From: an uncultured virus (IMG/VR IMGVR_UViG_3300050508_000500)
Taxonomy: Duplodnaviria > Heunggongvirae > Uroviricota > Caudoviricetes
Length of the DNA stretch: 25,998 nucleotides
IMG/VR virus record: IMGVR_UViG_3300050508_000500
Direction: 5' to 3' (one strand)
In this document: positions 1 through 13,802 of the stretch, in pieces
Numbering within the stretch: position 1 is the first letter of the stretch
Layout of the letters: every line of letters starts with the position of its first letter
The notes under the pieces: generated by a model
Databases searched by the model: none
What the model saw: the letters and a program-made list of their open reading frames with translations, nothing else
Told to the model about the DNA's origin: nothing
Made by a program: the position numbers and the translations under genes

Positions 1-36
1 CCGCGTAGGAGTTTGGCGATGGAGTTGCATATATGA
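1..36 (+). CDS. 3' end of upstream gene, probably terminase large subunit (partial)
   Basis: Frame 1 reads PRRSLAMELHI* with its TGA overlapping the portal ATG (ATGA 33-36); identity inferred from position only. Confidence 0.3.
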   Translation, partial: PRRSLAMELHI

Positions 37-1583
37 GTGTCACGCTTCCGCATCCGGCGTATCGTGCCATGCTGCCGCTCTGGGCGATGCTGCGCGACGG
101 CTACCTGGGCGAAGCCGCCGTCAAGTCGGCACAGCCCCTCGATGCCGTCCGCCGCAGTACGTCCACAGCGCGCAATGGGACGGCGTATCTGCCACGCCCA
201 GCGGGGATGCGCCGCGATGAACAGTACGCCGCGTATCGGGATCGCCCCGCGTGGACGAGTGCCACAGAACACGCCGTGCATGGGATTACCGGCTCGGTAT
301 TCCGCCACGAGCCGCAACTCGTAGGGCCTGCTGCCTTAGAGCCGCAACTGGCCGACATTACGCAGACCGGCATTTCGCTGCGCATGTTCTGTGAAGAGGC
401 GGTGCGTGAGACCTTACTCATGGGGCGCTTCGGCATCCTGGTCGACTTCCCGACCGGTGACCTCACGCCCGATGGTCAGTTGCTCCCGCCGCCGCCGCAG
501 AGTCGCCCGTACTGGGTGGCGTACCAGGCCGAGGAGATTATTAACTGGCGCACGATGCAGCGGGGGGGCGATACGATCCTGTCGCTCGTGGTGCTGCGGG
601 AATGTGTGCAGGTCCCACAAGGCCCGTGGGGGACGCCCGACTTCTTTGTGGTCAAAGACCAGATTCAGTACCGCGTGCTGCGCTTGAATGAACGGGGGCT
701 CTACGAGGTGAGCTTGTGGCTGGAAGATCCGATTGGCCAGCGTACCAATGCCCAGGCCGCAACGCTCCAGCGGGTGTGGATGCCGACCCGCCAGGGGCAA
801 CCGCTCGACTTCCTCCCGTTCTGCTTCATGGCGCCGTTTTCGCTCGAGCCGACGCCCGAGAAGTCGCTCCTCGAAGGCTTAGTCCAAAGGAACTTTTTGA
901 ACTGGCGCCACAGCGCGGACTACGAGCATGCCTTACACTTGACCGCCATGCCGCAGTTCTACATTGCCGCCAACATGGAAGCGCCCCCGGAGCTGTACGT
1001 GGGGGCCAGCTCGGCCCTCTTCCTGCCCGATAATCAAGCCAAGGTGGGGATCGTCGAGTTTCACGGGCAGGGCCTCCAGCCGCACGAGAACGCCCTCAAA
1101 GCCGATCTGCAAATGATGGCCGCGATGGGCGCGCGGCTCCTCGAAGGTCCACCGGAGACCCAGGAAACGGCCACGGGTGTGCAGTGGCGCATGGCGGGCA
1201 GCGATAGCCCCGTGCAGAGCCTCGTGAGCAGCGTCAGTCAAGGGCTCACGTGGGCACTGCAAGTGCACGCGTGGTGGCAGGGCCTCACTGAAAATGTGGA
1301 TGATCCGTCCGTGCATGTGGTCCTCAACAAGGACCTCGTATCGAATGTGATGCAACCGCAGATGCTCCTGGCCTTGATGCAAGCGTTGCTCAACGGTACT
1401 ATTTCGTACGAAACGTTCTATTTCTGTTTACAACGTGGGGAGATTGCAAGGCCACTTGTGCCTGTAGAGGAAGAACAGGCGCTGATTGAAGACGAGCAAG
1501 CCCAACGGCCGCTCGCCATGCTGCCTCCAGGACCAGGAACCCCACCACCGGGACGCAATGGGACGACGCGGCAGGTGGCTTAG
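33..1583 (+). CDS. Phage portal protein (DUF4055-like)
   Basis: 516 aa; YLPRP..Y.AY..R start, 'GRFGILVDFP', 'RPYWVAYQAEEIINWR', 'LSLVVLRE', 'SADYEHALHLTAMP', 'GARLL', 'GTISYET' are typical of this portal family; first gene of head module. Confidence 0.9.
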   Translation: MSVTLPHPAYRAMLPLWAMLRDGYLGEAAVKSAQPLDAVRRSTSTARNGTAYLPRPAGMRRDEQYAAYRDRPAWTSATEHAVHGITGSVFRHEPQLVGPAALEPQLADITQTGISLRMFCEEAVRETLLMGRFGILVDFPTGDLTPDGQLLPPPPQSRPYWVAYQAEEIINWRTMQRGGDTILSLVVLRECVQVPQGPWGTPDFFVVKDQIQYRVLRLNERGLYEVSLWLEDPIGQRTNAQAATLQRVWMPTRQGQPLDFLPFCFMAPFSLEPTPEKSLLEGLVQRNFLNWRHSADYEHALHLTAMPQFYIAANMEAPPELYVGASSALFLPDNQAKVGIVEFHGQGLQPHENALKADLQMMAAMGARLLEGPPETQETATGVQWRMAGSDSPVQSLVSSVSQGLTWALQVHAWWQGLTENVDDPSVHVVLNKDLVSNVMQPQMLLALMQALLNGTISYETFYFCLQRGEIARPLVPVEEEQALIEDEQAQRPLAMLPPGPGTPPPGRNGTTRQVA

Positions 1584-1592
1584 GAGGGTGCG

Positions 1593-1784
1593 ATGGCCAA
1601 GAAGAAGGTATCCTTTAAGACGGGGACCAAGGCCCGAGCCGCTCGGGGTAAAGTCGCCGAACAACTGAAGCGTCGGGGGTTGCGGAAAGGGAATGCCTTT
1701 GCCCTGGCGACGTATATTGCCAAGCGTGCCGGTGCGGCCGGCCGCAAACGCCTTGCCCGTCGGGGCTTGCGCAAGCGAGGATAG
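1593..1784 (+). CDS. Small very basic protein
   Basis: 63 aa, about 23 K/R and one acidic residue; GGAGGG RBS upstream. Confidence 0.7.
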   Translation: MAKKKVSFKTGTKARAARGKVAEQLKRRGLRKGNAFALATYIAKRAGAAGRKRLARRGLRKRG

Positions 1785-1787
1785 TCG

Positions 1788-1991
1788 ATGGCTGAGCACA
1801 CCACGGCGAACTTTGAGATCCTCCAGGAGGAAATCCGTCTGCGCATGCTCCAGGAAGACCGGGCCTATGCGTTGCAGCGGCTCCTCATGACCTTTCGCCC
1901 CCGGGCGGAATCACCCCGTTCTTATCGTCAACTCCTGGTGGACGTGCAGACGTGTGTTACCGAAGAATTGCAAACGTTAGGAGAGCCCTAG
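1788..1991 (+). CDS. Hypothetical protein
   Basis: 67 aa ORF, tightly packed, GAGGA RBS. Confidence 0.6.
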   Translation: MAEHTTANFEILQEEIRLRMLQEDRAYALQRLLMTFRPRAESPRSYRQLLVDVQTCVTEELQTLGEP

Positions 1992-2431
1992 TGGAACCTT
2001 ACGATCCAACGATGGAAGCCTTAGTCGATGCGATGATTCAGGCCCTTGATCACGACGCCGACATGACGCAAGGCTACGTGGATAAGCTCCGCCAACTCGT
2101 GGTGACGCTCCAGCATATGCTGGCCGATCCCGAGGGGCATGGGCTCATTGGCGAGACCCCGCCTGATCCCAAGACCACGCCGGAAGAAGAGCAGGTCATG
2201 CGCCAGGCGTTGGGGCATCTCGACCCCAAGGCGGGCGATGCCGAGTTGGAGTATCTCCAGGTCTTGCAGCGGCTCCAAGCAAGTGTCGAGCGCGAATTAT
2301 TTCGCTGGGCCTCATCGATTGTTCAGCCGGCGGGTTTTAGCGGAGAAATCCAGATACCTGTCGGGGGTGGTGAGTGGGAGCGGCATGACGAAGCGCTGCC
2401 CGAGACGAGTCGGCTGCGGCTCACGGTGTAG
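1991..2431 (+). CDS. Hypothetical acidic helical protein
   Basis: GTG at 1991 after AGGAGAG (ATG 2012 alternative); overlaps previous stop. Confidence 0.6.
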   Translation: MEPYDPTMEALVDAMIQALDHDADMTQGYVDKLRQLVVTLQHMLADPEGHGLIGETPPDPKTTPEEEQVMRQALGHLDPKAGDAELEYLQVLQRLQASVERELFRWASSIVQPAGFSGEIQIPVGGGEWERHDEALPETSRLRLTV

Positions 2432-2435
2432 CGGC

Positions 2436-2752
2436 ATGGGTATGGTCGTCACTTCCCTGGAAGGGATTGAAACTTTGAAGAGACTATCGCCACGGTCATG
2501 GCGGAGTATGCCACGGCCGTATCGCGCCAGAGGTGGCTAATGCGTGATGACCGTGCCCATGCCCGTCGCGTCTTCGAAGAAACGATTGCCCACGTGATGG
2601 CCGCGTACGCCCCTGCCGAGGATGTCCTGGTGGAGGCCAAGGCCCTTGACGAGGCGGGAGAGTCGATCGTGGTGGCCCGGTACAAGCTACACACCGATGG
2701 GCGGGTCGAATGTTTCGAAGTGCTCGATGAGGTATTATGGCCGAGTCCGTAA
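2436..2752 (+). pseudogene. Hypothetical protein, apparently frameshifted near 2470 (intact ORF part 2498..2752)
   Basis: ATG 2436 frame gives MGMVVTSLEGIE; the 2498 frame extends upstream as FEETIATVMAEYA, which repeats as FEETIAHVMAAYA at 2573. Confidence 0.4.
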
Positions 2753-2784
2753 ATGCCCCACGACGGGGTGGGAGAGTGCAACAT

Positions 2785-3012
2785 ATGAGTACGTTAGGAG
2801 ACGGGAAGCCCACGGTGTATCCGGGCGCTGATGGGACGCTAGAGGGCGCGATGGCCTCTCTGGAGGCCCTCCGGGCGGCGTTTATCGCCGCAGACCGCCG
2901 AGGCGGCGATGCGGACCTCTCACTCGTTTCCCCGGCGACGCGGATGCGGGCTCTGGAAGCCTGGCTTGATGCCGAAGACGCTAGGCGTGCCGCAGACGAC
3001 GGCGTCGCATGA
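2785..3012 (+). CDS. Hypothetical protein
   Basis: ATG 2785 after GGGAGAG; ATGA overlap with next gene. Confidence 0.55.
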   Translation: MSTLGDGKPTVYPGADGTLEGAMASLEALRAAFIAADRRGGDADLSLVSPATRMRALEAWLDAEDARRAADDGVA

Positions 3013-4052
3013 CCGAGCCCGTCAATGCGCAGATTGCCGACGCTTTCACCGCGCGCTTGCTCCAGGTGGGCCGGGCCGAGACGCACCAGCGCCAGGAGGT
3101 CTGGGCGGTCTTGCTCTTGCTGGAGCAGGATCTGTTGCATGCACTCCGGGAGGCCGATCCCGCGCAGTTTAGCTTTCTCGTGGCGCGGCGCCGGGCGGTG
3201 CAATTCCTGGTGCGGGATGAGATTGATCCCCTTGTAACGACCCGGTACGCCCAGATTGCCCGCGACGTGGACGCGTTTCTCGTGGCCCTGGCCGAGCAAG
3301 AGGCCCGTGTCACGCGGCGCATTGTGAATACCGAGACGGAGACCCGCACCATTGACGAGATGCCCAGCGAGACGACCTTGCGCCGGGCCGTGCGTCAGAC
3401 GCTCATCCCCAGCCCGGCCACACCCACGGACTTGAGCACGACCGGGGACGACTGGTGGAGCCGCGCCGCCGCTGGGCTCGTGACCCGCGTGGGCGATTCG
3501 CTCATGGTGGGGGTCAGCCTGGAGGAGCCCCTCCCGACTCTCGCGGCACGGGTGCAAGGGACGGCGGCGAACGGCTTTCAAGATGGGATTATGGCGAAGG
3601 CGAAAGAGGATGCCGCACGCCTCTTACGCACGCAGACGACCAATGCGGTGAGTGAGGCGCGCGTTGCAACGGCAATGGTGAATAGTGATGCAGTTCAAAT
3701 TGAACATCATTCGATTCTCGATTCGCGCACGTCACACGTCTGCCTGGCGCGTAATGGCCTCCGGTATACCGCCGATGCCGATCATACGCCGGTGGGGCAT
3801 AGCATTCCCTATCTCTCCGGTGTGCCGTACCATATCGCCTGACGTTCGAGCTTTATCCCGGTGGTACCGGGAGGAGGTCGCGTGCCAAACGACAGCGTGA
3901 GTAGCTGGCTGGCACGCCGCGATACGGCCTATCAGGATGCGGTCTTAGGGCCAACGCGGGCACGCATGTTTCGTGCTGGATCGCTCACGGTGAAACAATT
4001 AATCGAGGCGGCTACGGGCAAGCCATTGACGCTGGAGGAGCTCGGGGCATGA
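3009..4052 (+). CDS. MuF / SPP1 gp7-family minor head protein with internal in-frame TGA (3840-3842); 347 aa if read through
   Basis: 'A.RLLRTQTT', 'SILDSRTSHVCLARNG', 'PYHIA*RSSFIPV' (family PxHxxCRS motif), then in-frame C-terminal 'WL.R....QDAVLGPTRARMFRAG.LT..L....GKPLTLEEL' typical of these proteins. Confidence 0.85.
3843..3882 (+). promoter_or_regulatory. SECIS-like stem-loop immediately 3' of the in-frame TGA
   Basis: TCCCGGT-GGT-ACCGGGA perfect 7-bp stem (3856-3872), extendable by CTTT/GGAG and CGA/TCG; G-starting loop 20 nt after TGA. Confidence 0.55.
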
Positions 4053-4285
4053 GCTTGAATGCCCGACATCGCTATGTCATTCTGCGTCGGGGCGTCCCCG
4101 TTTTTACGACCGACGAGTGTGCCATGCTCGTCCCCTATTTGTGGGGACGTGACATCAACGATCGGTATGTGGTCTACGACTATGAGCGCCCCTATCCGGT
4201 GGATACCCCAGACCTCCTGGCCTGGCTTCAACCCTTGGAGGCGGCCACGGGCCAGCCGTTGACGCTCGAGGAGTTCGGCGCATGA
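4005..4285 (+). repeat. 48-nt imperfect direct repeat (4005-4052 and 4238-4285)
   Basis: 42/48 identical; each copy ends in GAGGAG...GCATGA. Confidence 0.85.
4049..4285 (+). CDS. Hypothetical protein whose C-terminus duplicates the MuF C-terminus
   Basis: ATGA coupling at both ends; ends EAATGQPLTLEEFGA. Confidence 0.65.
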   Translation: MSLNARHRYVILRRGVPVFTTDECAMLVPYLWGRDINDRYVVYDYERPYPVDTPDLLAWLQPLEAATGQPLTLEEFGA

Positions 4286-4482
4286 TCACCGACGCGTACC
4301 GCATCCTCACGCTTGCGGAAAAACCCGCGCTCCTCTGTCTCCTGTGCAATAGTATCAGTTTCCATGTCCAGGATATTGATTTTGCCTACTGTGTCGTCTG
4401 CCACGTTTACCTGGAGCGGGTCCCCAGGACGTATGATCCCGCCCAAGGTCCCTACGGGCAGACCGCGAAGGAAGCGCCATGA
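4282..4482 (+). CDS. Small putative zinc-binding protein
   Basis: CLLC and CVVC pairs; ATGA coupling. Confidence 0.6.
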   Translation: MITDAYRILTLAEKPALLCLLCNSISFHVQDIDFAYCVVCHVYLERVPRTYDPAQGPYGQTAKEAP

Positions 4483-4763
4483 GCGACCCCACCCGTGCGC
4501 TACGCGATCTGGCCATTGCGACCCGCGTGCGCCAGGGCGCTTCGTATGGGCGTGTGGCCCACGACTATGGCCTGTCCGCGACCCGCGTGCGCCAGATTGT
4601 GTGGACCCTGGCTCAGCGTGCGGGGGTCTCCATGCTGAGCCAGGTCTCCCTCCACGCCTTGCGGGCCTATTATGGGCGCCATGGGAATTTGAGCGGGATT
4701 GCCACGGTGTTCCCGGCCCCGACCTGGGCGCAGGACGTGTTGCAGCACAAGGAGCGACCATGA
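4479..4763 (+). CDS. Helix-turn-helix protein
   Basis: 'GASYGRVAHDYGLSATRVRQIV' HTH pattern; ATGA coupling. Confidence 0.6.
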   Translation: MSDPTRALRDLAIATRVRQGASYGRVAHDYGLSATRVRQIVWTLAQRAGVSMLSQVSLHALRAYYGRHGNLSGIATVFPAPTWAQDVLQHKERP

Positions 4764-4800
4764 TGAGTGTCATGCGGCTCCCGGCGAAGGATCTCCACTC

Positions 4801-4998
4801 ATGACCCCGCGCGATGCCCGGTACACGCATTGGCAGCAACAGCCGGACGACGAGTTGGACTATGAGCCCGAGCCCGGCTTCTACGCACGCGAGGAGGCGC
4901 CTCCAGATCCACAAACAGTCCTGGAGCGCTTAGAACGGCAGCTGCACGCCGCGCATTGTCTCCGAGAGGCGCAGGAGGATCCATGCCTGGAACCCTGA
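4801..4998 (+). CDS. Hypothetical acidic protein
   Basis: ATG 4801 after AAGGA. Confidence 0.4.
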   Translation: MTPRDARYTHWQQQPDDELDYEPEPGFYAREEAPPDPQTVLERLERQLHAAHCLREAQEDPCLEP

Positions 4999-5201
4999 CG
5001 CTCACGGGCGAGGTGTGGCTCCCCGCGCGGCTCATGGCCGGGCGCACGATGGTGGCCATTGAGGCCCTCCTGCATGCGCATGGCGCCCTCCCGCAGCAGG
5101 CGCAGAGTCTGCGCTGGCGCCTCGATGCGGAAACGCCGGGGAGTTACCGGCTGACGTATACCTTCACATTGCCCGAGGAACTCCCGGAGACGTCGGCATG
5201 A
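4983..5201 (+). CDS. Hypothetical protein
   Basis: ATG 4983 after AGGAGG; ATGA coupling downstream. Confidence 0.55.
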   Translation: MPGTLTLTGEVWLPARLMAGRTMVAIEALLHAHGALPQQAQSLRWRLDAETPGSYRLTYTFTLPEELPETSA

Positions 5202-5488
5202 GTGCCTGTTGTGGACGGATTAGGGCTTTGAGGCGGCGCCCACGTCTGCGGCCAGGCGGCGTGAGCGGGAGGGACACTATGCTATTCGAGGGTCGGCTCC
5301 TGCCGCCCATTAGTGCGACGCTGGAGGCCTTCGTGCGGGCGCATCTGCCGCGCCTCCCTGCGGCCCCCGGCTGGCTGTGGGTGGGCGAAACCTGCTGGGT
5401 GGCGACGTATACCCAGGAGTCGATGCAGCCCGAACACTTTGCGGGCTGGGAATGCCTCAACCCGCGCCGGGAGGTGCCCGATGCTTGA
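5198..5488 (+). CDS. Hypothetical protein (start may be ATG 5279 after GGGAGG)
   Basis: ORF in packed gene string. Confidence 0.45.
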   Translation: MSACCGRIRALRRRPRLRPGGVSGRDTMLFEGRLLPPISATLEAFVRAHLPRLPAAPGWLWVGETCWVATYTQESMQPEHFAGWECLNPRREVPDA

Positions 5489-5708
5489 TGCGCTCGTGTG
5501 GGAACGACTTGAACTGCATGGCGTGACCGAAGAGCACCTGCGCATGCTGGCGTGTGCGCTGGAGCTGCAAAAGAATGGCTCCCTCGCCTGGCACTTCGCG
5601 CACGGGTATCTCTCGCAATGTGATCTGCGGCTCGTGATGCCCTCAAAAAGCTATGAGTTGTCACGGATCAGCGACGCGGTGCTGGACGGCGCAAGCGTGG
5701 TCCGCTAG
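5481..5708 (+). CDS. Hypothetical protein (YezD/DUF2292-like pattern possible)
   Basis: ATG 5481 after GGAGGT; helix then 'GSLAWHFAHGYL' beta-hairpin pattern. Confidence 0.55.
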   Translation: MLDALVWERLELHGVTEEHLRMLACALELQKNGSLAWHFAHGYLSQCDLRLVMPSKSYELSRISDAVLDGASVVR

Positions 5709-5723
5709 CGTGGAGGAGACTGC

Positions 5724-6056
5724 GTGCAGGCGGACTGGTTTTATCGCCTAGCCACGACGGCGAGCCTGGTTGCCGGGTCGGCCTGGATGTTTCTCGGGTC
5801 CGTGTTGGCCTTTGGGCTCTGGCTAGCATTAGGCCCCGTCTTCCACTGGGGCGACCTCTGGAATCTCATCCCCACCAGTTTGCTCACGTGGACAACCTGG
5901 ATTCTCGTCATTTTGATTCAACATACCCAAACGCATCAAGAGACGGCGCTTCAGACCAAGGTTGACGAGTTGATTAAAGCGATTGATGCGGCCGATAATC
6001 GGTTGATTGGCTTAGAGAAGCAGCCGCCCTCCGCATGTCCCCCGGACTTGGGCTAG
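5724..6056 (+). CDS. Low-affinity iron permease (Fet4-like) family small membrane protein
   Basis: Two TM segments with 'GPVFHWGDLWNL', 'LIQHTQ', 'ALQTKVDELIKAI', 'NRLIGLE' matching the family pattern; GGAGGAG RBS. Confidence 0.8.
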   Translation: MQADWFYRLATTASLVAGSAWMFLGSVLAFGLWLALGPVFHWGDLWNLIPTSLLTWTTWILVILIQHTQTHQETALQTKVDELIKAIDAADNRLIGLEKQPPSACPPDLG

Positions 6057-6181
6057 GGCGGCGGGCAGCTCGCATGGGACAGGCCAGCGGGGCCTTGCCT
6101 TGGCCAGCCTCGACACGTCACGTCGCGCCGTGCCTAGACGGCGATGCCTTGCCATGTCTATATCCCATAGTTTTATACGAA

Positions 6182-6706
6182 CTATGGGCCTGTGATCAGA
6201 ATATACGGGTCGTTAAAGTCCTCAAACGTCAGCTCATAGCTAAAACTCACCAACGCCAGCGTCCCTGCACGAATAACCGGCGTCCAGTTCGGATTAGGGC
6301 AGCCCTGCGCGACAATGGTAGGATTGACGCTCTGTGCTGGCACGCTCAACCGGCCATTCTTTCCCGACGTGACGGTAATCTGCGTACTTGCACTAAAACT
6401 CGTCGTGTGTGACTCAATCGGATTATTTCGATTCGCGCCGTGGTTGAAACAATCCACGGTGGCGCTGTAGCTGGCGTTCAGGCTGACGTTCGCGTCAGTA
6501 TGACCGACGCCCGCCAGTTCAAACGTGCTACAGGTGACGGACTGGTCGGCATTGACGCTACAGCCAATGGTGCCCGTTTGCAGATGGGTCCCCGAGGGGG
6601 CTTGCGACGGATCGAGGCTGCTCGTGATGGCGGCCAGGGCGCCGGTGGCGCTCAGGCACAGGGCCAGGAAGCTGGCGACGAGCCGGGAGCGAGGGTGACG
6701 GATCAT
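6182..6706 (-). CDS. Secreted Cys-containing beta-rich protein (moron)
   Basis: Signal peptide ending ALA, 4 Cys in mature part incl. CPNPNW; AAGGAG RBS; antisense to structural genes. Confidence 0.75.
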   Translation of the reverse strand: MIRHPRSRLVASFLALCLSATGALAAITSSLDPSQAPSGTHLQTGTIGCSVNADQSVTCSTFELAGVGHTDANVSLNASYSATVDCFNHGANRNNPIESHTTSFSASTQITVTSGKNGRLSVPAQSVNPTIVAQGCPNPNWTPVIRAGTLALVSFSYELTFEDFNDPYILITGP

Positions 6707-6814
6707 GACGTGTCTCCTTGTGCTAGACAGGTATGTCGTGTAAACGGCGATGCGGGGCTACCCTACACGAAGAGATTGTGCTAGGCAAGCGGAGGGAGGC
6801 GAGAGAAGCGACCA

Positions 6815-6834
6815 GGGCGGGTTCCGGCCCGCCC
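6815..6834. terminator. GC-rich hairpin, possible minus-strand terminator
   Basis: GGGCGGG-TTCCGG-CCCGCCC; weak U-tract. Confidence 0.4.
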
Positions 6835-6881
6835 CAGTGACTACACAAGCATTCACGAGTAGCCAGGAGTGTAGCAGATCC

Positions 6882-7079
6882 TCACCGGTCCTGCACGCCC
6901 GTGGGCGGGGCCGAGTGTCGTGGGACCTCCCGCGTGGCGAGCCAGGCGTGGAAGTCATGCGCCTGCGCCTCCATCTTGCGGGCAATCGCATCGAGGCGGG
7001 CCAGGGTCCGTGCGTGCAGGGCGGCATGGCCGTAGATGGATTCGAAGTCATGGTCGGGCAGGTCGGCGTCGTCACACAT
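6882..7079 (-). CDS. Hypothetical protein
   Basis: ATG 7079 after GAGGA; divergent from RHH operon. Confidence 0.45.
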   Translation of the reverse strand: MCDDADLPDHDFESIYGHAALHARTLARLDAIARKMEAQAHDFHAWLATREVPRHSAPPTGVQDR

Positions 7080-7092
7080 CACGGTTTTCCTC

Positions 7093-7122
7093 TTGCTTTC
7101 ATCAGTCTTTTCGCCATACAAT
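7093..7122 (+). promoter_or_regulatory. Sigma70-type promoter, probably giving a leaderless mRNA
   Basis: TTGCTT-18 nt-TACAAT; ATG 7129 lies at expected +1 and has no SD. Confidence 0.65.
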
Positions 7123-7128
7123 GATATC

Positions 7129-7311
7129 ATGAAAAAAATTACTGTCCATATTGCGGCACAACAATATGTACGGCTCAAGGCGCTGGCTGACGTGCTTGGA
7201 ATGAAACAAGCAGAATTGTTGCGCCGCTTTCTTGAGGAGGGGCTTGTCCAGGCTGAACAGGAACGCCAGCAGCAGGCACGGCATTCCTCTATGCATAGAG
7301 AGGAGGAGTGA
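7129..7311 (+). CDS. Ribbon-helix-helix (CopG-like) regulator
   Basis: MKKITVHI beta-strand, 'RLKALADVLGMKQAELLRRFLEEGL'. Confidence 0.8.
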   Translation: MKKITVHIAAQQYVRLKALADVLGMKQAELLRRFLEEGLVQAEQERQQQARHSSMHREEE

Positions 7312-8342
7312 TGGCGGAGGAGTCACGGCCTATTCCTGAACGGCTAATCGCGCCATGGATTGCCGACAATCAGGACTTCCTTCGTCAAATTGGCGAAAGA
7401 CTGAACCTCCTGGAAGATGCCACTGAGTTGCGCGATTTGCTCCATATCCGCACGGTGGAAGCAGCGCCTCCCACGTCATTAGGTGCAGTGGATGCGGCGG
7501 TCATTGATGTCCCGCTCGGCGATATCTGTTCTATTTTGATTCAAGCAGTCCGTGTCGATGCCGATGGCCAAACGTCGTTCGGCGACCCTATCCGTGAAAC
7601 TGGTATTAATGGTGAAGAATTGAGCTTGGCCCGTACGCCTTTACGTATGCTCGCGGAAAATATCTTGTTGGTCGACAGCTGTACGCCCACGATTGCCGAT
7701 ACGTCATTCTGGTCGATGCTCATGGAAGTGAATCAAACGATTACGCGGCGTATAAACGGTGGGACGAGGAATGCTGGTATTAATCGAGCGTATGAAAGGT
7801 TGGTCGTTGATGGCGGCTTTCTCGCCCTGCTTGAGAATCCTGAAGTGATTGCGATGAGCAAGAGTAGTGAGCGTATTACGCTTGCGGCTCTTCAGGCCAG
7901 AACACACCAGTTTGATCGTGCGCTTGTCTCCGATCGTGAACTCCTTGGACAGATACTCCAGCCAGGAGAATTTCTCGCGCCAGAGCCGCTTGTCACAGGG
8001 ACTAAAGGCCGGTTTGGCGTGGAAAAGCGTGGATTCAAGCATGACGAGCGGCAGGCCCTGCGTGATTTCTATGAGCGGCGCTTAGGCATGACCTATTTTA
8101 AACCCCATCCGTTTTCACGGGCCTTACGTATTGAAGCACGGCTAGAGAGGCTCTGTGATGATACATGGCTGATGCCGTTACTTTCCGCCCTCACGTACCA
8201 TACGGCAGATCGAAGCGTGGAGCCCTGGCCCCAGTTTCTGGCGGATTGGACGACGAAGCGGTTATCAGCCATTGCGACGCTCTACGGCATGTTCAATTTT
8301 CCACGTACGCCCTTTTTCGATCCGGCTAGAACACTCATCTAA
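7311..8342 (+). CDS. NurA-like nuclease (RNase H fold)
   Basis: 'GAVDAA', 'IADTSF', 'IAMSKSS', C-terminal 'EPWPQFLADWTTK' correspond to NurA AVDGS / DGS / GxxK / YPxxLxxAH motifs; directly upstream of HerA. Confidence 0.7.
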   Translation: MAEESRPIPERLIAPWIADNQDFLRQIGERLNLLEDATELRDLLHIRTVEAAPPTSLGAVDAAVIDVPLGDICSILIQAVRVDADGQTSFGDPIRETGINGEELSLARTPLRMLAENILLVDSCTPTIADTSFWSMLMEVNQTITRRINGGTRNAGINRAYERLVVDGGFLALLENPEVIAMSKSSERITLAALQARTHQFDRALVSDRELLGQILQPGEFLAPEPLVTGTKGRFGVEKRGFKHDERQALRDFYERRLGMTYFKPHPFSRALRIEARLERLCDDTWLMPLLSALTYHTADRSVEPWPQFLADWTTKRLSAIATLYGMFNFPRTPFFDPARTLI

Positions 8343-8361
8343 CCCGGACGAAAGGAGTCTG

Positions 8362-9999
8362 ATGGAACGATGGATTGCGACGCTCGATGGTGTCAAAGAT
8401 GGCCTTATTTACTGTACGATTCTCCACGAGGCTCGTGGAACCCCGCTGACAGGACAATATGTCGCCTTGCCGGTCGAGTTAAATCTCATTGTGGGACGCA
8501 TGGGGCCTATTAATCTGAGCAATCCGATTCATGACGATCCTGCCTTCAAGCCCTATCTCATGGTTCATGGTCGCGTGGAGCAATGGTCCCGCGAAGTCGA
8601 TATTGAGCAATCGACCATTCAGATTATTGGGACGGTCGATGCCAAAAACGTCAAAATCCCGCAACAAGCCTGGCCATCGACTGGGACGCTCATTGCCCTC
8701 GCAGATAGTGACCATCTCACACGACTCTACAATGAGAAAGATGAGCGGTATCGGCTCGCACTGGGCCATATTCCCAATACCCCAGAGATTCTCGCAACGA
8801 TTATCAATCGCAATTTTGGCCGAGTTGAAGACGGTGGGTATGGGGAGGCCCGCTTGTATGCGGTTTATGGCCAAACGGGATCAGGCAAAACGGTTTTTGC
8901 GCTGATGTTGATCGCTGGGAAGCTCTGCGCACATCCACAGATGGGCTTACTTATGCCCGATACGGCGGGCGATCTCTCGGATGCCACGCGCCATGATCGA
9001 GGCGACTTCCATTGGAATTATCTGGAGGTCTGTCAGGCTGCGGGGATCAAGGTTGAGGTGCTCAATGTCCAGGACATTTGCATGACCGATCGAGCCACGT
9101 TGGCTGATCTCCTGGTGTTTCCGTTCCATCGGCATATAGGGAATATGCGCGACGACATTGCCTATAGGTTGGGGGAGCTTGTGAGCGAAGAGATTTTTGG
9201 TGAGAAGGATGTCACCATTGCGGAACTGACGAGTGAGCGCGTGCTTGACGCCGTTGGCGTCCATATTGGCTCCTGTTATGCCGGGGGCGGCAATACCCAG
9301 AAAGCCAAGCTGCAAGAAGTCGCTCAATTGCAGACACAGCCTGCTCGGCGTCGGGCTTTTGAGCGTGACTTTGAGCGCGTCAGGCAGTTCTTTGATGGCC
9401 GCGAACGCATGGGTGATCTTGTCCAGAGTATTTTAGAGCATGGGCGCAAGGTGGTTATACGGATGGATTCGCGGTATCTCCGGGAAAAAGAACAAGTCTA
9501 CGTCATGAGGGAACTCATGGAGCATCTGACGCAGCATGCTCAAAGGCGCTATACCCAGGGGCAACAAAACAATGCCCTCGTGGTTTTGGATGAGGGGACG
9601 CGGTGGGTCCCCGAAGCGCGAGTCGATGATACCAATGAAACACGGTCGGTCGTGAATCGGGCCTACCGTGAAACGCGTAAATATGGCGTCGGCTGGATGG
9701 TTATTGCCCAACGCATTGCCGAAGTGGCGAAAACGGTCTTAACCCAGTCGCAGATGGTGTGGTTTGGTCGCGGGTTGGGCAGCGGAACAGACCGGCGCCA
9801 TTTAGAAGAGGTGTTGCTCAAAGAAGGGCTGGAAACCTATGACCGCCTCGAACTCCAGGGCGGCTTTTTCTGGGTGGGCAAGGGCCAGGAGAACAATCTC
9901 GGTACGGAAGGCAACTTTACGACGGTCCATCCCTTCGGTGGGGATGCAACAGCGGCGTTAATTGCCGCGAATCCTGCAATCTTTAGGAGACGGCACTAA
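8362..9999 (+). CDS. HerA/FtsK-family ATPase
   Basis: N-terminal HAS-barrel-like region, Walker A GQTGSGKT, Walker B VVLDEG, 'RETRKYGVGWMVIAQR'; AAGGAG RBS. Confidence 0.9.
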   Translation: MERWIATLDGVKDGLIYCTILHEARGTPLTGQYVALPVELNLIVGRMGPINLSNPIHDDPAFKPYLMVHGRVEQWSREVDIEQSTIQIIGTVDAKNVKIPQQAWPSTGTLIALADSDHLTRLYNEKDERYRLALGHIPNTPEILATIINRNFGRVEDGGYGEARLYAVYGQTGSGKTVFALMLIAGKLCAHPQMGLLMPDTAGDLSDATRHDRGDFHWNYLEVCQAAGIKVEVLNVQDICMTDRATLADLLVFPFHRHIGNMRDDIAYRLGELVSEEIFGEKDVTIAELTSERVLDAVGVHIGSCYAGGGNTQKAKLQEVAQLQTQPARRRAFERDFERVRQFFDGRERMGDLVQSILEHGRKVVIRMDSRYLREKEQVYVMRELMEHLTQHAQRRYTQGQQNNALVVLDEGTRWVPEARVDDTNETRSVVNRAYRETRKYGVGWMVIAQRIAEVAKTVLTQSQMVWFGRGLGSGTDRRHLEEVLLKEGLETYDRLELQGGFFWVGKGQENNLGTEGNFTTVHPFGGDATAALIAANPAIFRRRH

Positions 10000-11195
10000 T
10001 GGCCACTGCTCCAGCATTACATCTTGTCGACGTTTCTCTAAAGGACCCCAGCCAGGAAACATGGGAAGCTCTTATTGCTCGCTATGGGCAAGCCTTCATT
10101 GCGATTGAAGCACGCGAGGCGACGACGAGCTGGGACAAAGCGCAATTAGTGAGAGACTTTGACGAAGAAGTACTTCGCCATCCGGCGATGCATGGAAAAC
10201 CGCGGCATGAGATCAGCAAGAAGGCCAATATGGACCTGCGAGCATGGCTGGAGACGCAACGGCAACCTGCCGTGCGGCCCTCGTTTCTTGCTAATGCACG
10301 CAAACTCTTTGCAACGTGGCCAGATATTATTGCCGGCAATAATATCTTGCCCTATGAAGCCTATCGACACATGGCAAACTGTAATTTGCCACGTACAGAA
10401 AAAGAAGAAGTCCGCGCTTGGGCGGAAGAGACTCGCCCTCTTCGGACAGAACTGCGGCGTGCCATTCGTGCCCGTGTCGATGCCGCACAGGGCGTGTATC
10501 GCCCTGACTTTGATCTCAAGGTGTCAAATCATTGGGTCTTTGCCGCTGACGATAAGCGCCTCGATGGCTTTGAAGGCGGGGTCAATCCCGCCCTGTATGC
10601 GAACCTCATCCATTACTTCTCCAATCCCGGCGATACCGTGCTTGATCCCTTCGCAGGTGGTGGTCTCCTCGCAGCCACTCTCAAGCGGTACACCCATTTT
10701 CAGCACGTGACGCAGGCAGAATTTAGCGGACCACGCTATGCCCTCATGGCGGACATTGCCCCGCAGCATCCAGCGATTGTACAGGCCGATGCCCGTATAA
10801 GTCTCCCGTTTCCTGATCAATGTGCCCACCTCGCTATCTGCGACCCCCCCTATCTGACAATAGCGAAAGGCAAATATACTGAGCTAGGGCATGTCTTTGC
10901 AGAGTGGCGGGAGGGCCTCAAAGCGGCTATCAACCAAGTTGCTCGCTGCCTCACCCCTGAGGGTATTTTGGTCATCATGACCGATGATCTCTTGCGTAAG
11001 CAACAGCATATACCTCTTGGCTATAAAGTCGTGAGCTTGCTCGAAGAGGAAGGCTGGCAACTCATGACGACGCTCTATAACTTCAATCGCAATTTTCTCA
11101 GTATGAGCCCTGTCGCTATGGCGGGTGCCAAACATGCACGGTTTGCGGTGAATGCCGTCAAATCTATTCAGGTAGCCGTACGGCCTACCGTCTAA
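9999..11195 (+). CDS. Amino-methyltransferase (probably DNA m6A/m4C) with extra N-terminal helical domain
   Basis: 'GDTVLDPFAGGG' motif I followed by 'CDPPY' motif IV; TAATG coupling to HerA. Confidence 0.8.
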   Translation: MATAPALHLVDVSLKDPSQETWEALIARYGQAFIAIEAREATTSWDKAQLVRDFDEEVLRHPAMHGKPRHEISKKANMDLRAWLETQRQPAVRPSFLANARKLFATWPDIIAGNNILPYEAYRHMANCNLPRTEKEEVRAWAEETRPLRTELRRAIRARVDAAQGVYRPDFDLKVSNHWVFAADDKRLDGFEGGVNPALYANLIHYFSNPGDTVLDPFAGGGLLAATLKRYTHFQHVTQAEFSGPRYALMADIAPQHPAIVQADARISLPFPDQCAHLAICDPPYLTIAKGKYTELGHVFAEWREGLKAAINQVARCLTPEGILVIMTDDLLRKQQHIPLGYKVVSLLEEEGWQLMTTLYNFNRNFLSMSPVAMAGAKHARFAVNAVKSIQVAVRPTV

Positions 11196-11830: not shown

Positions 11831-11883
11831 ACCTTAGCGCATAATTCGCTCTTGCCCTCGGGTGAGATCCGCCTCTGTCTCGC

Positions 11884-11925
11884 AAGCGGCCTTCGGGAAC
11901 ACGATTCCTGGAGGCCGCTTTTTTT
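11884..11925 (+). terminator. Rho-independent terminator
   Basis: AAGCGGCC...GGCCGCTT long stem followed by T-run. Confidence 0.75.
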
Positions 11926-11937
11926 GGTGCCCCGCTC

Positions 11938-11987
11938 CCGCTGTGAGATGCAGCGGTCTTTGGTCCATGGCTGGCGAGATGCCGGCC
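11938..11987 (+). promoter_or_regulatory. Twin GAGAT-loop hairpins in scaffold leader
   Basis: CCGCTGT-GAGAT-GCAGCGG and GGCTGGC-GAGAT-GCCGGCC. Confidence 0.6.
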
Positions 11988-12014
11988 CAACCACACACAC
12001 CGAGAGGGTGCTGT

Positions 12015-12794
12015 ATGGCGCTGAAACAATGGTATACGGCTGCGGGAGAGATTCCTGACAGCTTCCGCGAACTCTATGCCGAGCATGAGGGGAAATGGAT
12101 TCTCCAGACCGAACCCTCACTCGATGGCATTCCCAAGCTGCAAGAAGCCCTGACGACCGAGCGCACGGTACGTCGGGAAGTCGAGAAGCAGCTCGTAGAT
12201 ATGAAGACGCGCTATGAAGGCATCGATCCTGATGAACACCGGAAGATGCAAGAGCGCGTCAAGGGCTTGGACGATGCCGATATTTACGACCGTCAAGGCA
12301 TCGAGGTGCTCATCGCTAAACGTACCGACAGCATGCGGGCCGATCATGAACGCCAGGTAGGCACCCTGAAACGCGAGAATGATCAGCTGAAAACGACCGC
12401 CGCCGATCTGGATCGCCGCTGGCGCCAGGACCGCATCAAAACGGCACTCCTTGACGCGGTCACAAAAAACGGTGTGTATGAGAAAGCAGTTGACGATGCG
12501 GTACAACGCGGGCTGTCCGTGTTCACCGACCTGGACGATAAAGGGAATGTGATCGCCAAAAACGGTGATGATACGATTTACGGCAAAGATGGCGTCAATG
12601 CCCTGAATCCGAGCGAGTGGATTACCACGCTCAAAGCCAGTGGCCAGGCGCCGCACCTGTGGCCGCCGTCGTCCGGCGGTGGTGCCCCGGCAAGTCATAG
12701 CGGCAATGGCGCGGGCATCGACTGGAACAGTATCACGAATCCGGCAGAACGCCTGACCCGCTTCCGTGAGTGGCAGGCGACGCAAACCCGCTAA
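12015..12794 (+). CDS. Capsid scaffolding protein
   Basis: 'EIPDSFRELYAEHEGKWIL' N-terminus, coiled coil, 'APHLWPPSSGGGA'; directly before capsid gene. Confidence 0.85.
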   Translation: MALKQWYTAAGEIPDSFRELYAEHEGKWILQTEPSLDGIPKLQEALTTERTVRREVEKQLVDMKTRYEGIDPDEHRKMQERVKGLDDADIYDRQGIEVLIAKRTDSMRADHERQVGTLKRENDQLKTTAADLDRRWRQDRIKTALLDAVTKNGVYEKAVDDAVQRGLSVFTDLDDKGNVIAKNGDDTIYGKDGVNALNPSEWITTLKASGQAPHLWPPSSGGGAPASHSGNGAGIDWNSITNPAERLTRFREWQATQTR

Positions 12795-12866: not shown

Positions 12867-13802
12867 ATGGCCCTGACCATCGTGGAAGCGTCCAAGCTCA
12901 ATTCGGGCGATGTCGCCCGCACGGCAATTGTGGAAATGTACGCGAGGAATTCTGACATCCTCAGAGTGTTACCTTTTGAAGGAATCGCTGGCAATGCGCT
13001 GAAGTATAATCGTGAGGATATTTTGCCCGGCGTGGGATTTCGCGGAGTGAACGAAGGTTTTACGGAGTCGGTTGGAGTGCTGAACCCCATCACGGAATCC
13101 CTTGTCATTGCTGGCGGAGACCTCGATGTTGACCGGTTTATCACGCGAACGATGGGAGCCAACCAACGCAGCGTGCAGGAGGGTCTGAAGGTCAAGGCCC
13201 TTGCCCACCGCTGGACCCTCGCTTTTATAAAAGGTGACAGTTCAGCCGACCCTCGAGAATTTGATGGGCTGCAACGGCGTATCCCGCCAGGGAGTTCACA
13301 ACTCCTCGATGCCGGGGCCACGTCGGGCGGGGATGCGCTCTCCTTGTTCAAGCTCGATACGCTGATCAGCAAGGTCGATGACCCTAACTACCTCATTATG
13401 AACAACACGATGGCACTCAGGTTGGCGCAGGCAGCGCGCAATACGGCGGTGGGCGGGTTCATTACATGGGACCCCAATCAGTTCGGGCAGCGCGTCATGG
13501 CCTACAACGGCATTCCGATCCTCATTGCCCGCGAAGATAATGTTGGGAACGACATCCTGCCGTTTACCGAGGCGAATCCGGGCGGGGGCGCCGCCGCCAG
13601 TACCAGCGTTTATGCGGTCCAGTTTGGCGACGGCGGCGTAGTAGGGATACAAAATGGGCCTTTAGACGTAAGAGACCTAGGAGAATTAGAAGCAAAACCG
13701 GTCTTTAGGACCAGGGTCGAGTGGTTCGCCTCCATTGCAGTATTCCATGGTAGATCAGTTGCAAGACTACGAGGCATAAAAGATGCAGCCGTTGTGGTAT
13801 AG
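12867..13802 (+). CDS. Major capsid protein (HK97 fold)
   Basis: 'MALTIVEASK', 'YNRE..LPGVGFRGVNEG', 'GGDLDVDRFI', 'FIKGD..DPREFDGLQRR', 'VRDLGEL..KPVFRTRVEW'. Confidence 0.92.
   Translation: MALTIVEASKLNSGDVARTAIVEMYARNSDILRVLPFEGIAGNALKYNREDILPGVGFRGVNEGFTESVGVLNPITESLVIAGGDLDVDRFITRTMGANQRSVQEGLKVKALAHRWTLAFIKGDSSADPREFDGLQRRIPPGSSQLLDAGATSGGDALSLFKLDTLISKVDDPNYLIMNNTMALRLAQAARNTAVGGFITWDPNQFGQRVMAYNGIPILIAREDNVGNDILPFTEANPGGGAAASTSVYAVQFGDGGVVGIQNGPLDVRDLGELEAKPVFRTRVEWFASIAVFHGRSVARLRGIKDAAVVV

Follow-up and report, generated by a model that had tools for sequence, protein, structure and literature searches.

The stretch of DNA analyzed here, referred to throughout as the window (25,998 nucleotides of the uncultured virus record IMGVR_UViG_3300050508_000500 in IMG/VR), carries a gene for a MuF-type minor head protein that is interrupted by an in-frame UGA at a position where the family has an invariant cysteine. 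A first-pass annotation, made from the letters of the window alone, had proposed that this UGA is decoded as selenocysteine (Sec) with the help of a hairpin resembling a selenocysteine insertion sequence (SECIS). The features on which the proposal turns are these:

3009..4052, plus strand: MuF / SPP1-gp7-type head morphogenesis gene, taken as read through an internal UGA (347 codons and a terminal TGA)
3741..3743, plus strand: codon of Cys245, the other invariant Cys of the domain, from the alignment
3840..3842, plus strand: candidate Sec codon (codon 278), a UGA in frame where the PYHxxCRS motif has its invariant Cys
3843..4049, plus strand: conserved C-terminal part of MuF after the UGA, 69 codons (beta strand 281-285 and four helices)
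3842..3883, plus strand: extended hairpin with three short lower stems, reaching the A of the UGA
3856..3872, plus strand: apical stem-loop of the SECIS-like element, a stem of 7 base pairs (bp), UCCCGGU/ACCGGGA, with loop GGU

The open reading frame (ORF) begins with an ATG at 3009 on the plus strand and runs to ...SGVPYHIA, where it meets the TGA of 3840-3842. Past this codon the frame reads on as RSSFIPVVPGGG... / RSSFIPVVPGGGRVPND..., with no other stop before the TGA of 4050-4052, and that stop shares bases with the ATG (4049-4051) that opens the following ORF (4049..4285). The first-pass annotation had described an ORF that halts at PYHIA-TGA in a frame open to 4052, and an ATGA coupling to the gene that follows; the ORF coordinates agree with it on both counts. 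Only the read-through product matches MuF profiles from end to end. It scores 29.9 bits against PF04233 (Phage_Mu_F), over the cut-off of 29.6, with residues 160-282 aligned to positions 6-111 of the 112 in the model, whereas the 277-residue product fails the cut-off with 26.3 bits and covers positions 6-93. The "head morphogenesis" profile phrog_241 spans residues 1-345 unbroken across the TGA (E = 8.8e-54), and the 69 residues that follow the TGA match positions 298-352 of this profile on their own (E = 1.8e-12).

An AlphaFold2 (AF2) model of the read-through protein, built from a 62-sequence alignment and with Cys at residue 278, is one confident fold (predicted local distance difference test score, pLDDT, of 92.4; predicted template modelling score, pTM, of 0.90). 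A beta strand (281-285) comes directly after residue 278 in this model, and four C-terminal helices come after the strand. This form of MuF has no effector domain fused at its C-terminus. Fold searches with the full model returned generic helical bundles only, a fold search with a model of the C-terminal domain (pLDDT 80) returned nothing above Z 3.2, and a PDB sequence search for a role of the Cys gave no match. When a natural Cys-form homologue was run against a protein atlas, all clusters retrieved were MuF clusters with the label Viruses.

The residue written as UGA belongs to a set of five (H233, C245, H264, H275 and C/U278) that is invariant in the 62-sequence alignment. Its column holds Cys in all 61 full-length relatives, so the earlier placement of the TGA on the conserved Cys of a PxHxxCRS motif stands. 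In distant relatives (at most 32% identity), 35 of 38 loci have Cys at the column; at two of the other three the site itself is occupied by an intein-like insertion, and the third could not be read in the frame used. The two insertions are in viral contigs whose MuF homologues have about 26-28% identity. In one of them (L058) a ...HFN motif is followed by an intein-type N-terminus, and the other (L056) is similar; a further homologue, protein P0061 of 479 residues, contains the Pfam intein domain PF14890. Inteins tend to sit at functionally critical sites, and their presence at the exact position of this Cys would also fit a chemically active residue. The five invariant residues might form a metal or redox site.

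The TGA is real, and any recoding of it would be local. Ten of the 26 listed plus-strand genes of the window end in TGA, including the MuF gene itself at 4050-4052; TGA is an ordinary stop here, as the first-pass annotation had said. Four further public runs have contigs across 3840-3842, none of them listed with a different letter, and two of these runs contain a divergent strain that also has the TGA. None of the sequencing runs listed is an RNA run. Because the codon is unchanged across the four runs, the sequencing error that the earlier proposal had named as a possible refutation is excluded. The co-occurring strain, seen at window positions 3632-3881 and 4103-4206, is about 90% identical over the MuF gene and keeps the TGA.

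Alternation of UGA and Cys codons, and probable translation past the UGA

The UGA is not peculiar to this phage. A protein search returned 95 homologues, of which 31, with 48% to 100% identity, are only 210-292 residues long and cover no more than 80% of the query; of the 18 truncated homologues that were aligned, 16 stop exactly before the Cys column. At the nucleotide level, the motif Y-L-x-G-x-P-Y-H-x-x was present in 25 of 63 viral-contig loci and was followed by TGA in eight and by TGC or TGT in 17. Viral and metagenome contigs together gave 35 distinct 120-nucleotide (nt) contexts from 61 loci, and none of the 35 had a codon other than TGA, TGC or TGT. The contexts of sufficient length for analysis comprised 12 distinct ones with TGA and 20 with Cys, from relatives of 47-100% identity. 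Independent homologues with TGA and a hairpin, for which the first-pass annotation had advised a search, do exist among these 12 contexts, and a private nonsense mutation, which it had named as a possible refutation, is excluded by a TGA/Cys alternation that recurs across a diverged subfamily.

A scan of the whole viral-contig collection with a degenerate pattern found eight TGA and 19 TGY contigs. For another MuF lineage (G-P-G-x-x-H-W-G-C-R-S-T), a narrow-pattern scan found TGA in none and TGY in 85 contigs at the same codon, a difference between the two lineages (8/27 vs 0/85) with a Fisher p of 5e-6. The TGA is therefore a trait of one lineage and no generic error at this codon. A maximum-likelihood tree was built from 27 distinct genes (10 TGA, 17 Cys), without partial genes shorter than 600 nt such as L093 and L097. 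TGA and Cys forms intermingle on this tree and require at least eight changes; the well-supported branches alone force four.

The codons after the TGA behave as coding sequence. All complete TGA forms retain 68-70 open codons to the same C-terminus. Pairwise dN/dS values among TGA forms are similar downstream (0.09-0.48) and upstream (0.10-0.33) of the TGA, with synonymous sites saturated in many pairs. Between the window and its 90% relative (L002), there are 24 synonymous and nine nonsynonymous differences downstream. Arg-Ser comes right after the TGA in 12 of 12 forms, with Arg written as CGN (nine) or AGA (three) and Ser as AGY (eight) or TCN (four). No conserved restart codon was found after the TGA, and two of the 12 forms have no ATG, GTG or TTG within 19 codons. 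The open frame, the dN/dS values, the retained Arg-Ser and the lack of a conserved restart speak against both a split gene and a pseudogene in decay. By these comparisons the codons after the UGA are under purifying selection and, it appears, translated in frame.

The hairpin after the UGA

In the window, positions 3856-3862 pair with 3866-3872, and the GGU loop (3863-3865) begins 23 nt after the U of the UGA. The segment 3840-3885 has a minimum free energy of -20.5 kcal/mol (z = -2.36), and five of 200 dinucleotide shuffles fold as well. In the 90%-identical strain, two changes in the 3' arm (A>G at 3866 and at 3872) turn U-A pairs into U-G pairs, which preserves the pairing. Bacterial SECIS (bSECIS) elements have a loop 16-37 nt from the UGA, with a G in the first loop positions.

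Comparison of the TGA and Cys forms, which in the tests given here ignores relatedness, places such hairpins mainly in the TGA forms. An uninterrupted stem of at least 7 bp with a loop of 3-5 nt, 22-27 nt after the U, is present in 9/12 TGA forms vs 2/20 Cys forms (Fisher p = 3e-4). When the stem is allowed to be as short as 6 bp, the counts become 10/12 and 6/20, and the loops of these ten TGA forms contain a G and start 23-26 nt after the U. The fold of the 40 nt after the codon averages -13.0 kcal/mol in TGA forms vs -9.8 kcal/mol in Cys forms (p = 0.008), and the single hairpin -9.7 vs -6.9 kcal/mol (Mann-Whitney U test, p = 0.007). Against synonymous-codon shuffles, the mean z is -0.84 for TGA forms and +0.31 for Cys forms (p = 0.006). 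The first-pass annotation had claimed a SECIS-like hairpin directly after the UGA; the stem-loop is confirmed, with its loop about 20 nt downstream, and it is enriched in TGA forms.

The position of the hairpin is constant, and its stem sequence and register vary among sublineages. Stems include UCCCGGU/ACCGGGA, ACCAUCC/GGAUGGU, CUAUCGC/GCGAUGG and CCUGUUC/GAACGGG, and the tight loops (GGU, UGGA, UGGU, UGGG, UGUGC and GGC) all contain G. Six TGA forms share the same register; in these, 97.6% of 42 cells pair and three of the seven pairs have changed on both sides, a combination matched by seven of 500 shuffles. Slid registers pair in 36-74%.

Decoding of the UGA and competing explanations

We put the probability at roughly 70% that codon 278 of this MuF gene is read as Sec, which would make the product a phage selenoprotein produced with the host's SelB. 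By the standard comparative criteria for selenoprotein genes, this is a probable phage structural gene with a Sec codon. Under this reading, 3009-4052 would encode a 347-residue MuF-type minor head protein in which Sec replaces the family's invariant Cys at residue 278. When a ribosome reaches the UGA at 3840-3842, the in-ORF hairpin at 3856-3872 would, with its G-rich apical loop about 20 nt after the UGA, recruit the host's SelB.GTP.Sec-tRNA(Sec) complex, as in the ordinary bacterial mechanism. Sec would be inserted, and translation would end only at the true stop, 4050-4052. Termination at the UGA would yield a 277-residue fragment without the core beta strand and the C-terminal helices. 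The residue inserted would then be Sec, the host would supply selA, selB, selC and selD, and the full-length product would be the functional virion protein. The ratio of the long to the short isoform may also matter.

Several observations weigh against this interpretation. All three of the pairs changed on both sides stem from one sequence, L022, and the encoded peptide (V-L-x-D-G-G, P-V-V-P-G-G-G) partly forces the hairpin. Similar hairpins occur in some Cys forms (L021, L006, L100 and L025). For individual sequences, the z values against synonymous shuffles are modest, at -2.1 for the window and -1.5 to +0.8 for other TGA forms. Among the TGA forms, L015 has only four uninterrupted base pairs, inside an interrupted 11-bp stem, and the hairpin of L086 is weak (free energy of -7.1). 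A phylogeny-aware test had four independent Sec/Cys pairs only, too few to give significance, and the hairpin was distributed as expected in about 1.6 of them and in the opposite way in 0-0.2. The hairpins were compared with general bSECIS criteria for loop distance and the position of the G. In bacteria, termination at a UGA is leaky when C or A comes next, so that some read-through without Sec is possible. As for the machinery, neither tRNA-Sec nor selD nor selA was found in five phage records (G000-G004, which are fragments), and selB was absent from G000 and G001, the only two searched for it. No relative turned up in 185,579 species genomes, whether these were scanned with the MuF or with the portal alignment.

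The main rival is leaky read-through independent of any SECIS, in which a near-cognate tRNA (for Trp or Cys) reads a weak UGA, perhaps helped by the hairpin, and yields a fixed ratio of 277- and 347-residue MuF isoforms, much as Qbeta makes its A1 protein. We regard this as unlikely, but it deserves the most attention among the alternatives. It would account for the conserved downstream frame, and the base after the UGA is C in nine and A in three of the 12 TGA forms. A hairpin could stimulate it, and the Sec machinery of the host is itself only inferred. However, this fourth base is C or A because the Arg codon after the UGA is conserved, which takes force from the argument. Leaky read-through would also leave unexplained why the stop is confined to an invariant Cys column and has no alternative but TGC or TGT in 35 of 35 contexts, which is the signature of Sec/Cys exchange. 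Insertion of Trp at an invariant Cys would be unexpected, and both the spacing of the hairpin and the G in its loop resemble those of a bSECIS. Programmed read-through of the Qbeta A1 type, in which the identity of the residue is uncritical, was considered separately and rejected, as the stop is on the invariant Cys column.

The UGA could instead be recoded to Cys, either by a tRNA-Sec-like tRNA-Cys working with a SelB-type factor or by Cys carried on tRNA-Sec when selenium is scarce. The comparative signature, a UGA at a Cys column with a hairpin, would be identical to that of Sec, and the sequence gives nothing to tell the two apart. Minor tRNA-Cys species of tRNA-Sec-like structure are described in bacteria in PMC5389517. 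Such systems are rare, and we consider Cys recoding quite improbable.

Slightly more doubtful still is that the UGA is a true stop, with a 277-residue protein and a separately started C-terminal peptide or with a recently inactivated gene. Gene callers do predict 277-residue proteins, and an in-frame GTG at 3882 of the window, after GGAGGAGG Gly codons, could serve as a restart. Two forms have no start within 19 codons, and five of the 12 have none in the first 15 codons, up to an in-frame GTG at offset 42 that seven forms have in common, so that the restart is not conserved. The 13 codons between the UGA and this GTG retain the Arg-Ser and Gly-Gly of the family. There is no frameshift or extra stop in 12 distinct TGA forms that differ by up to about 50% in protein sequence, the downstream dN/dS is 0.09-0.48, and the AF2 model puts a core beta strand right after residue 278. 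Sequencing or assembly error and global reassignment of TGA (genetic code 4 or 25) have a negligible chance of being right: four further runs and the 90%-identical strain share the TGA, and reassignment was rejected because TGA is an ordinary stop in 10 of 26 listed genes, including the end of MuF.

For Sec decoding, the broader picture is one towards which we lean with somewhat less assurance. The MuF proteins of this soil-phage lineage may be true selenoproteins, the first for viruses of bacteria, with at least eight toggles that would track Sec decoding by the host. The virion protein, and with it infectivity, would depend on host selenium, and Sec would lie in a His/Cys metal or redox-like site of a head-packaged protein. 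A full-text literature search, which left subscription journals and supplements outside its scope, found no paper on a bacteriophage-encoded selenoprotein, in keeping with the statement of the first-pass annotation that no Sec-containing MuF had been described. In their accessible portions, PMC5389517 and the preprint 10.1101/2022.07.06.499078 mention phages in other contexts only.

If Sec decoding is correct, bacteriophages use it for a core structural gene, and phage genes join the bacterial selenoproteome. There would also be a routine annotation error to mend, given that truncated proteins have been predicted for 31 of the 95 homologues in the database. The host's Sec machinery and selenium supply would become a determinant of phage host range or productivity, and the invariant Cys of MuF would be marked as chemically active. 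The UGA and its hairpin form a short cassette that can be tested directly in a reporter.

Host, genome setting and known systems

Since the phage records searched carry no Sec machinery, decoding would rest on that of the host. ARAGORN found no tRNA in the window or in the remaining record. The nearest cultured phages, by major capsid protein, terminase and MuF C-terminus, have many different hosts at 25-54% identity and are not informative. According to PMC5029168, 21.5% of about 5,200 sequenced bacteria use Sec, and host switching between Sec users and non-users may plausibly drive the toggling between Sec and Cys.

The window comes from a 64,380-base IMG/VR record that is classed as a provirus, is estimated to be 70% complete and has a G+C content of 61%. 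All ORFs scanned in this record are phage-like, with no host flank. The head module runs in the order terminase, portal, MuF, scaffold, major head protein, connectors and tail, and the neighbors of MuF in it are:

L102:766-2265, minus: large terminase, just upstream of the window
33..1583, plus strand: portal gene, upstream of MuF (phrog_145, E = 5e-107)
11862-12794: scaffold, downstream of MuF
12867-13802: major head protein, downstream of MuF

An unannotated gap of 1.4 kb separates the portal gene from MuF. It (1584-3008) holds only short ORFs in differing frames (1593-1784, 1788-1991, 1952-2431 and 2737-3012), and the two that were scanned, 1952-2431 and 2737-3012, had no PHROG match. After MuF, positions 4049-7311 contain about a dozen small ORFs, several joined by overlapping ATGA; the sole PHROG match among those scanned is 5724-6056 (membrane protein phrog_3485). 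Further on, 8272-11195 includes a 575-residue protein whose C-terminal residues 390-515 resemble phrog_2666, a family of large terminases (E = 3e-12), even though the phage has a complete one upstream of the portal gene. A methyltransferase-like gene comes after the gene for this 575-residue protein, and both lie within the head module. Rfam at gathering thresholds gave no match in the MuF and hairpin region. Outside the window, Rfam matched the type-P5 twister ribozyme (RF02684; score of 44.9 bits vs a gathering score of 37.6, E = 4e-6) to L102 4097-4164 on the plus strand, or about 49097-49164 of G000, which lies in the early/replication part of this phage's record.

The closest parallel is with bacterial selenoprotein genes. 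Zhang and Gladyshev are said to have given the bSECIS consensus, and the prototype of the in-ORF SECIS is reportedly that of E. coli fdhF. As in those genes, the in-frame UGA of MuF is at the Cys of its homologues, forms with UGA and with Cys occur in one family, and the ORF itself contains, immediately 3' of the UGA, a hairpin whose apical loop starts with a G and lies about 20 nt downstream. Unlike them, the MuF gene is carried by a phage in whose searched records no Sec machinery was found, and its product is a virion morphogenesis protein without a recognizable oxidoreductase fold. The accessible part of PMC5029168 refers to about 90 known or predicted prokaryotic selenoprotein families and does not mention MuF there.

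PMC9503650 describes MuF as a structural component that is packaged in the head. The protein of the window is like other MuF proteins, SPP1 gp7 and Mu gpF in its full-length profile match, its place a few genes after the portal gene and its conserved H...C...H..C pattern. It differs from other MuF proteins in that the invariant Cys of PxHxxC is written as UGA.

Virion proteins that depend on a UGA have a precedent in the RNA phage Qbeta, whose minor virion protein A1 is made by UGA read-through. Both cases involve a phage virion protein obtained through UGA decoding, with a short and a long product (the long one is proposed here for MuF). In Qbeta, however, the stop is not at a conserved residue, there is no Sec/Cys alternation, and no SECIS-type hairpin is needed.

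Viruses of eukaryotes offer the other comparison. Their selenoproteins, according to PMC6769590 and PMC8310308, are homologues of glutathione peroxidase, and MuF would resemble them as a virus-borne gene that relies on the host's Sec machinery. The eukaryotic viruses use a SECIS in the 3' untranslated region and have captured antioxidant enzymes from their hosts, whereas MuF would have a bacterial-type signal inside the ORF of a core structural gene.

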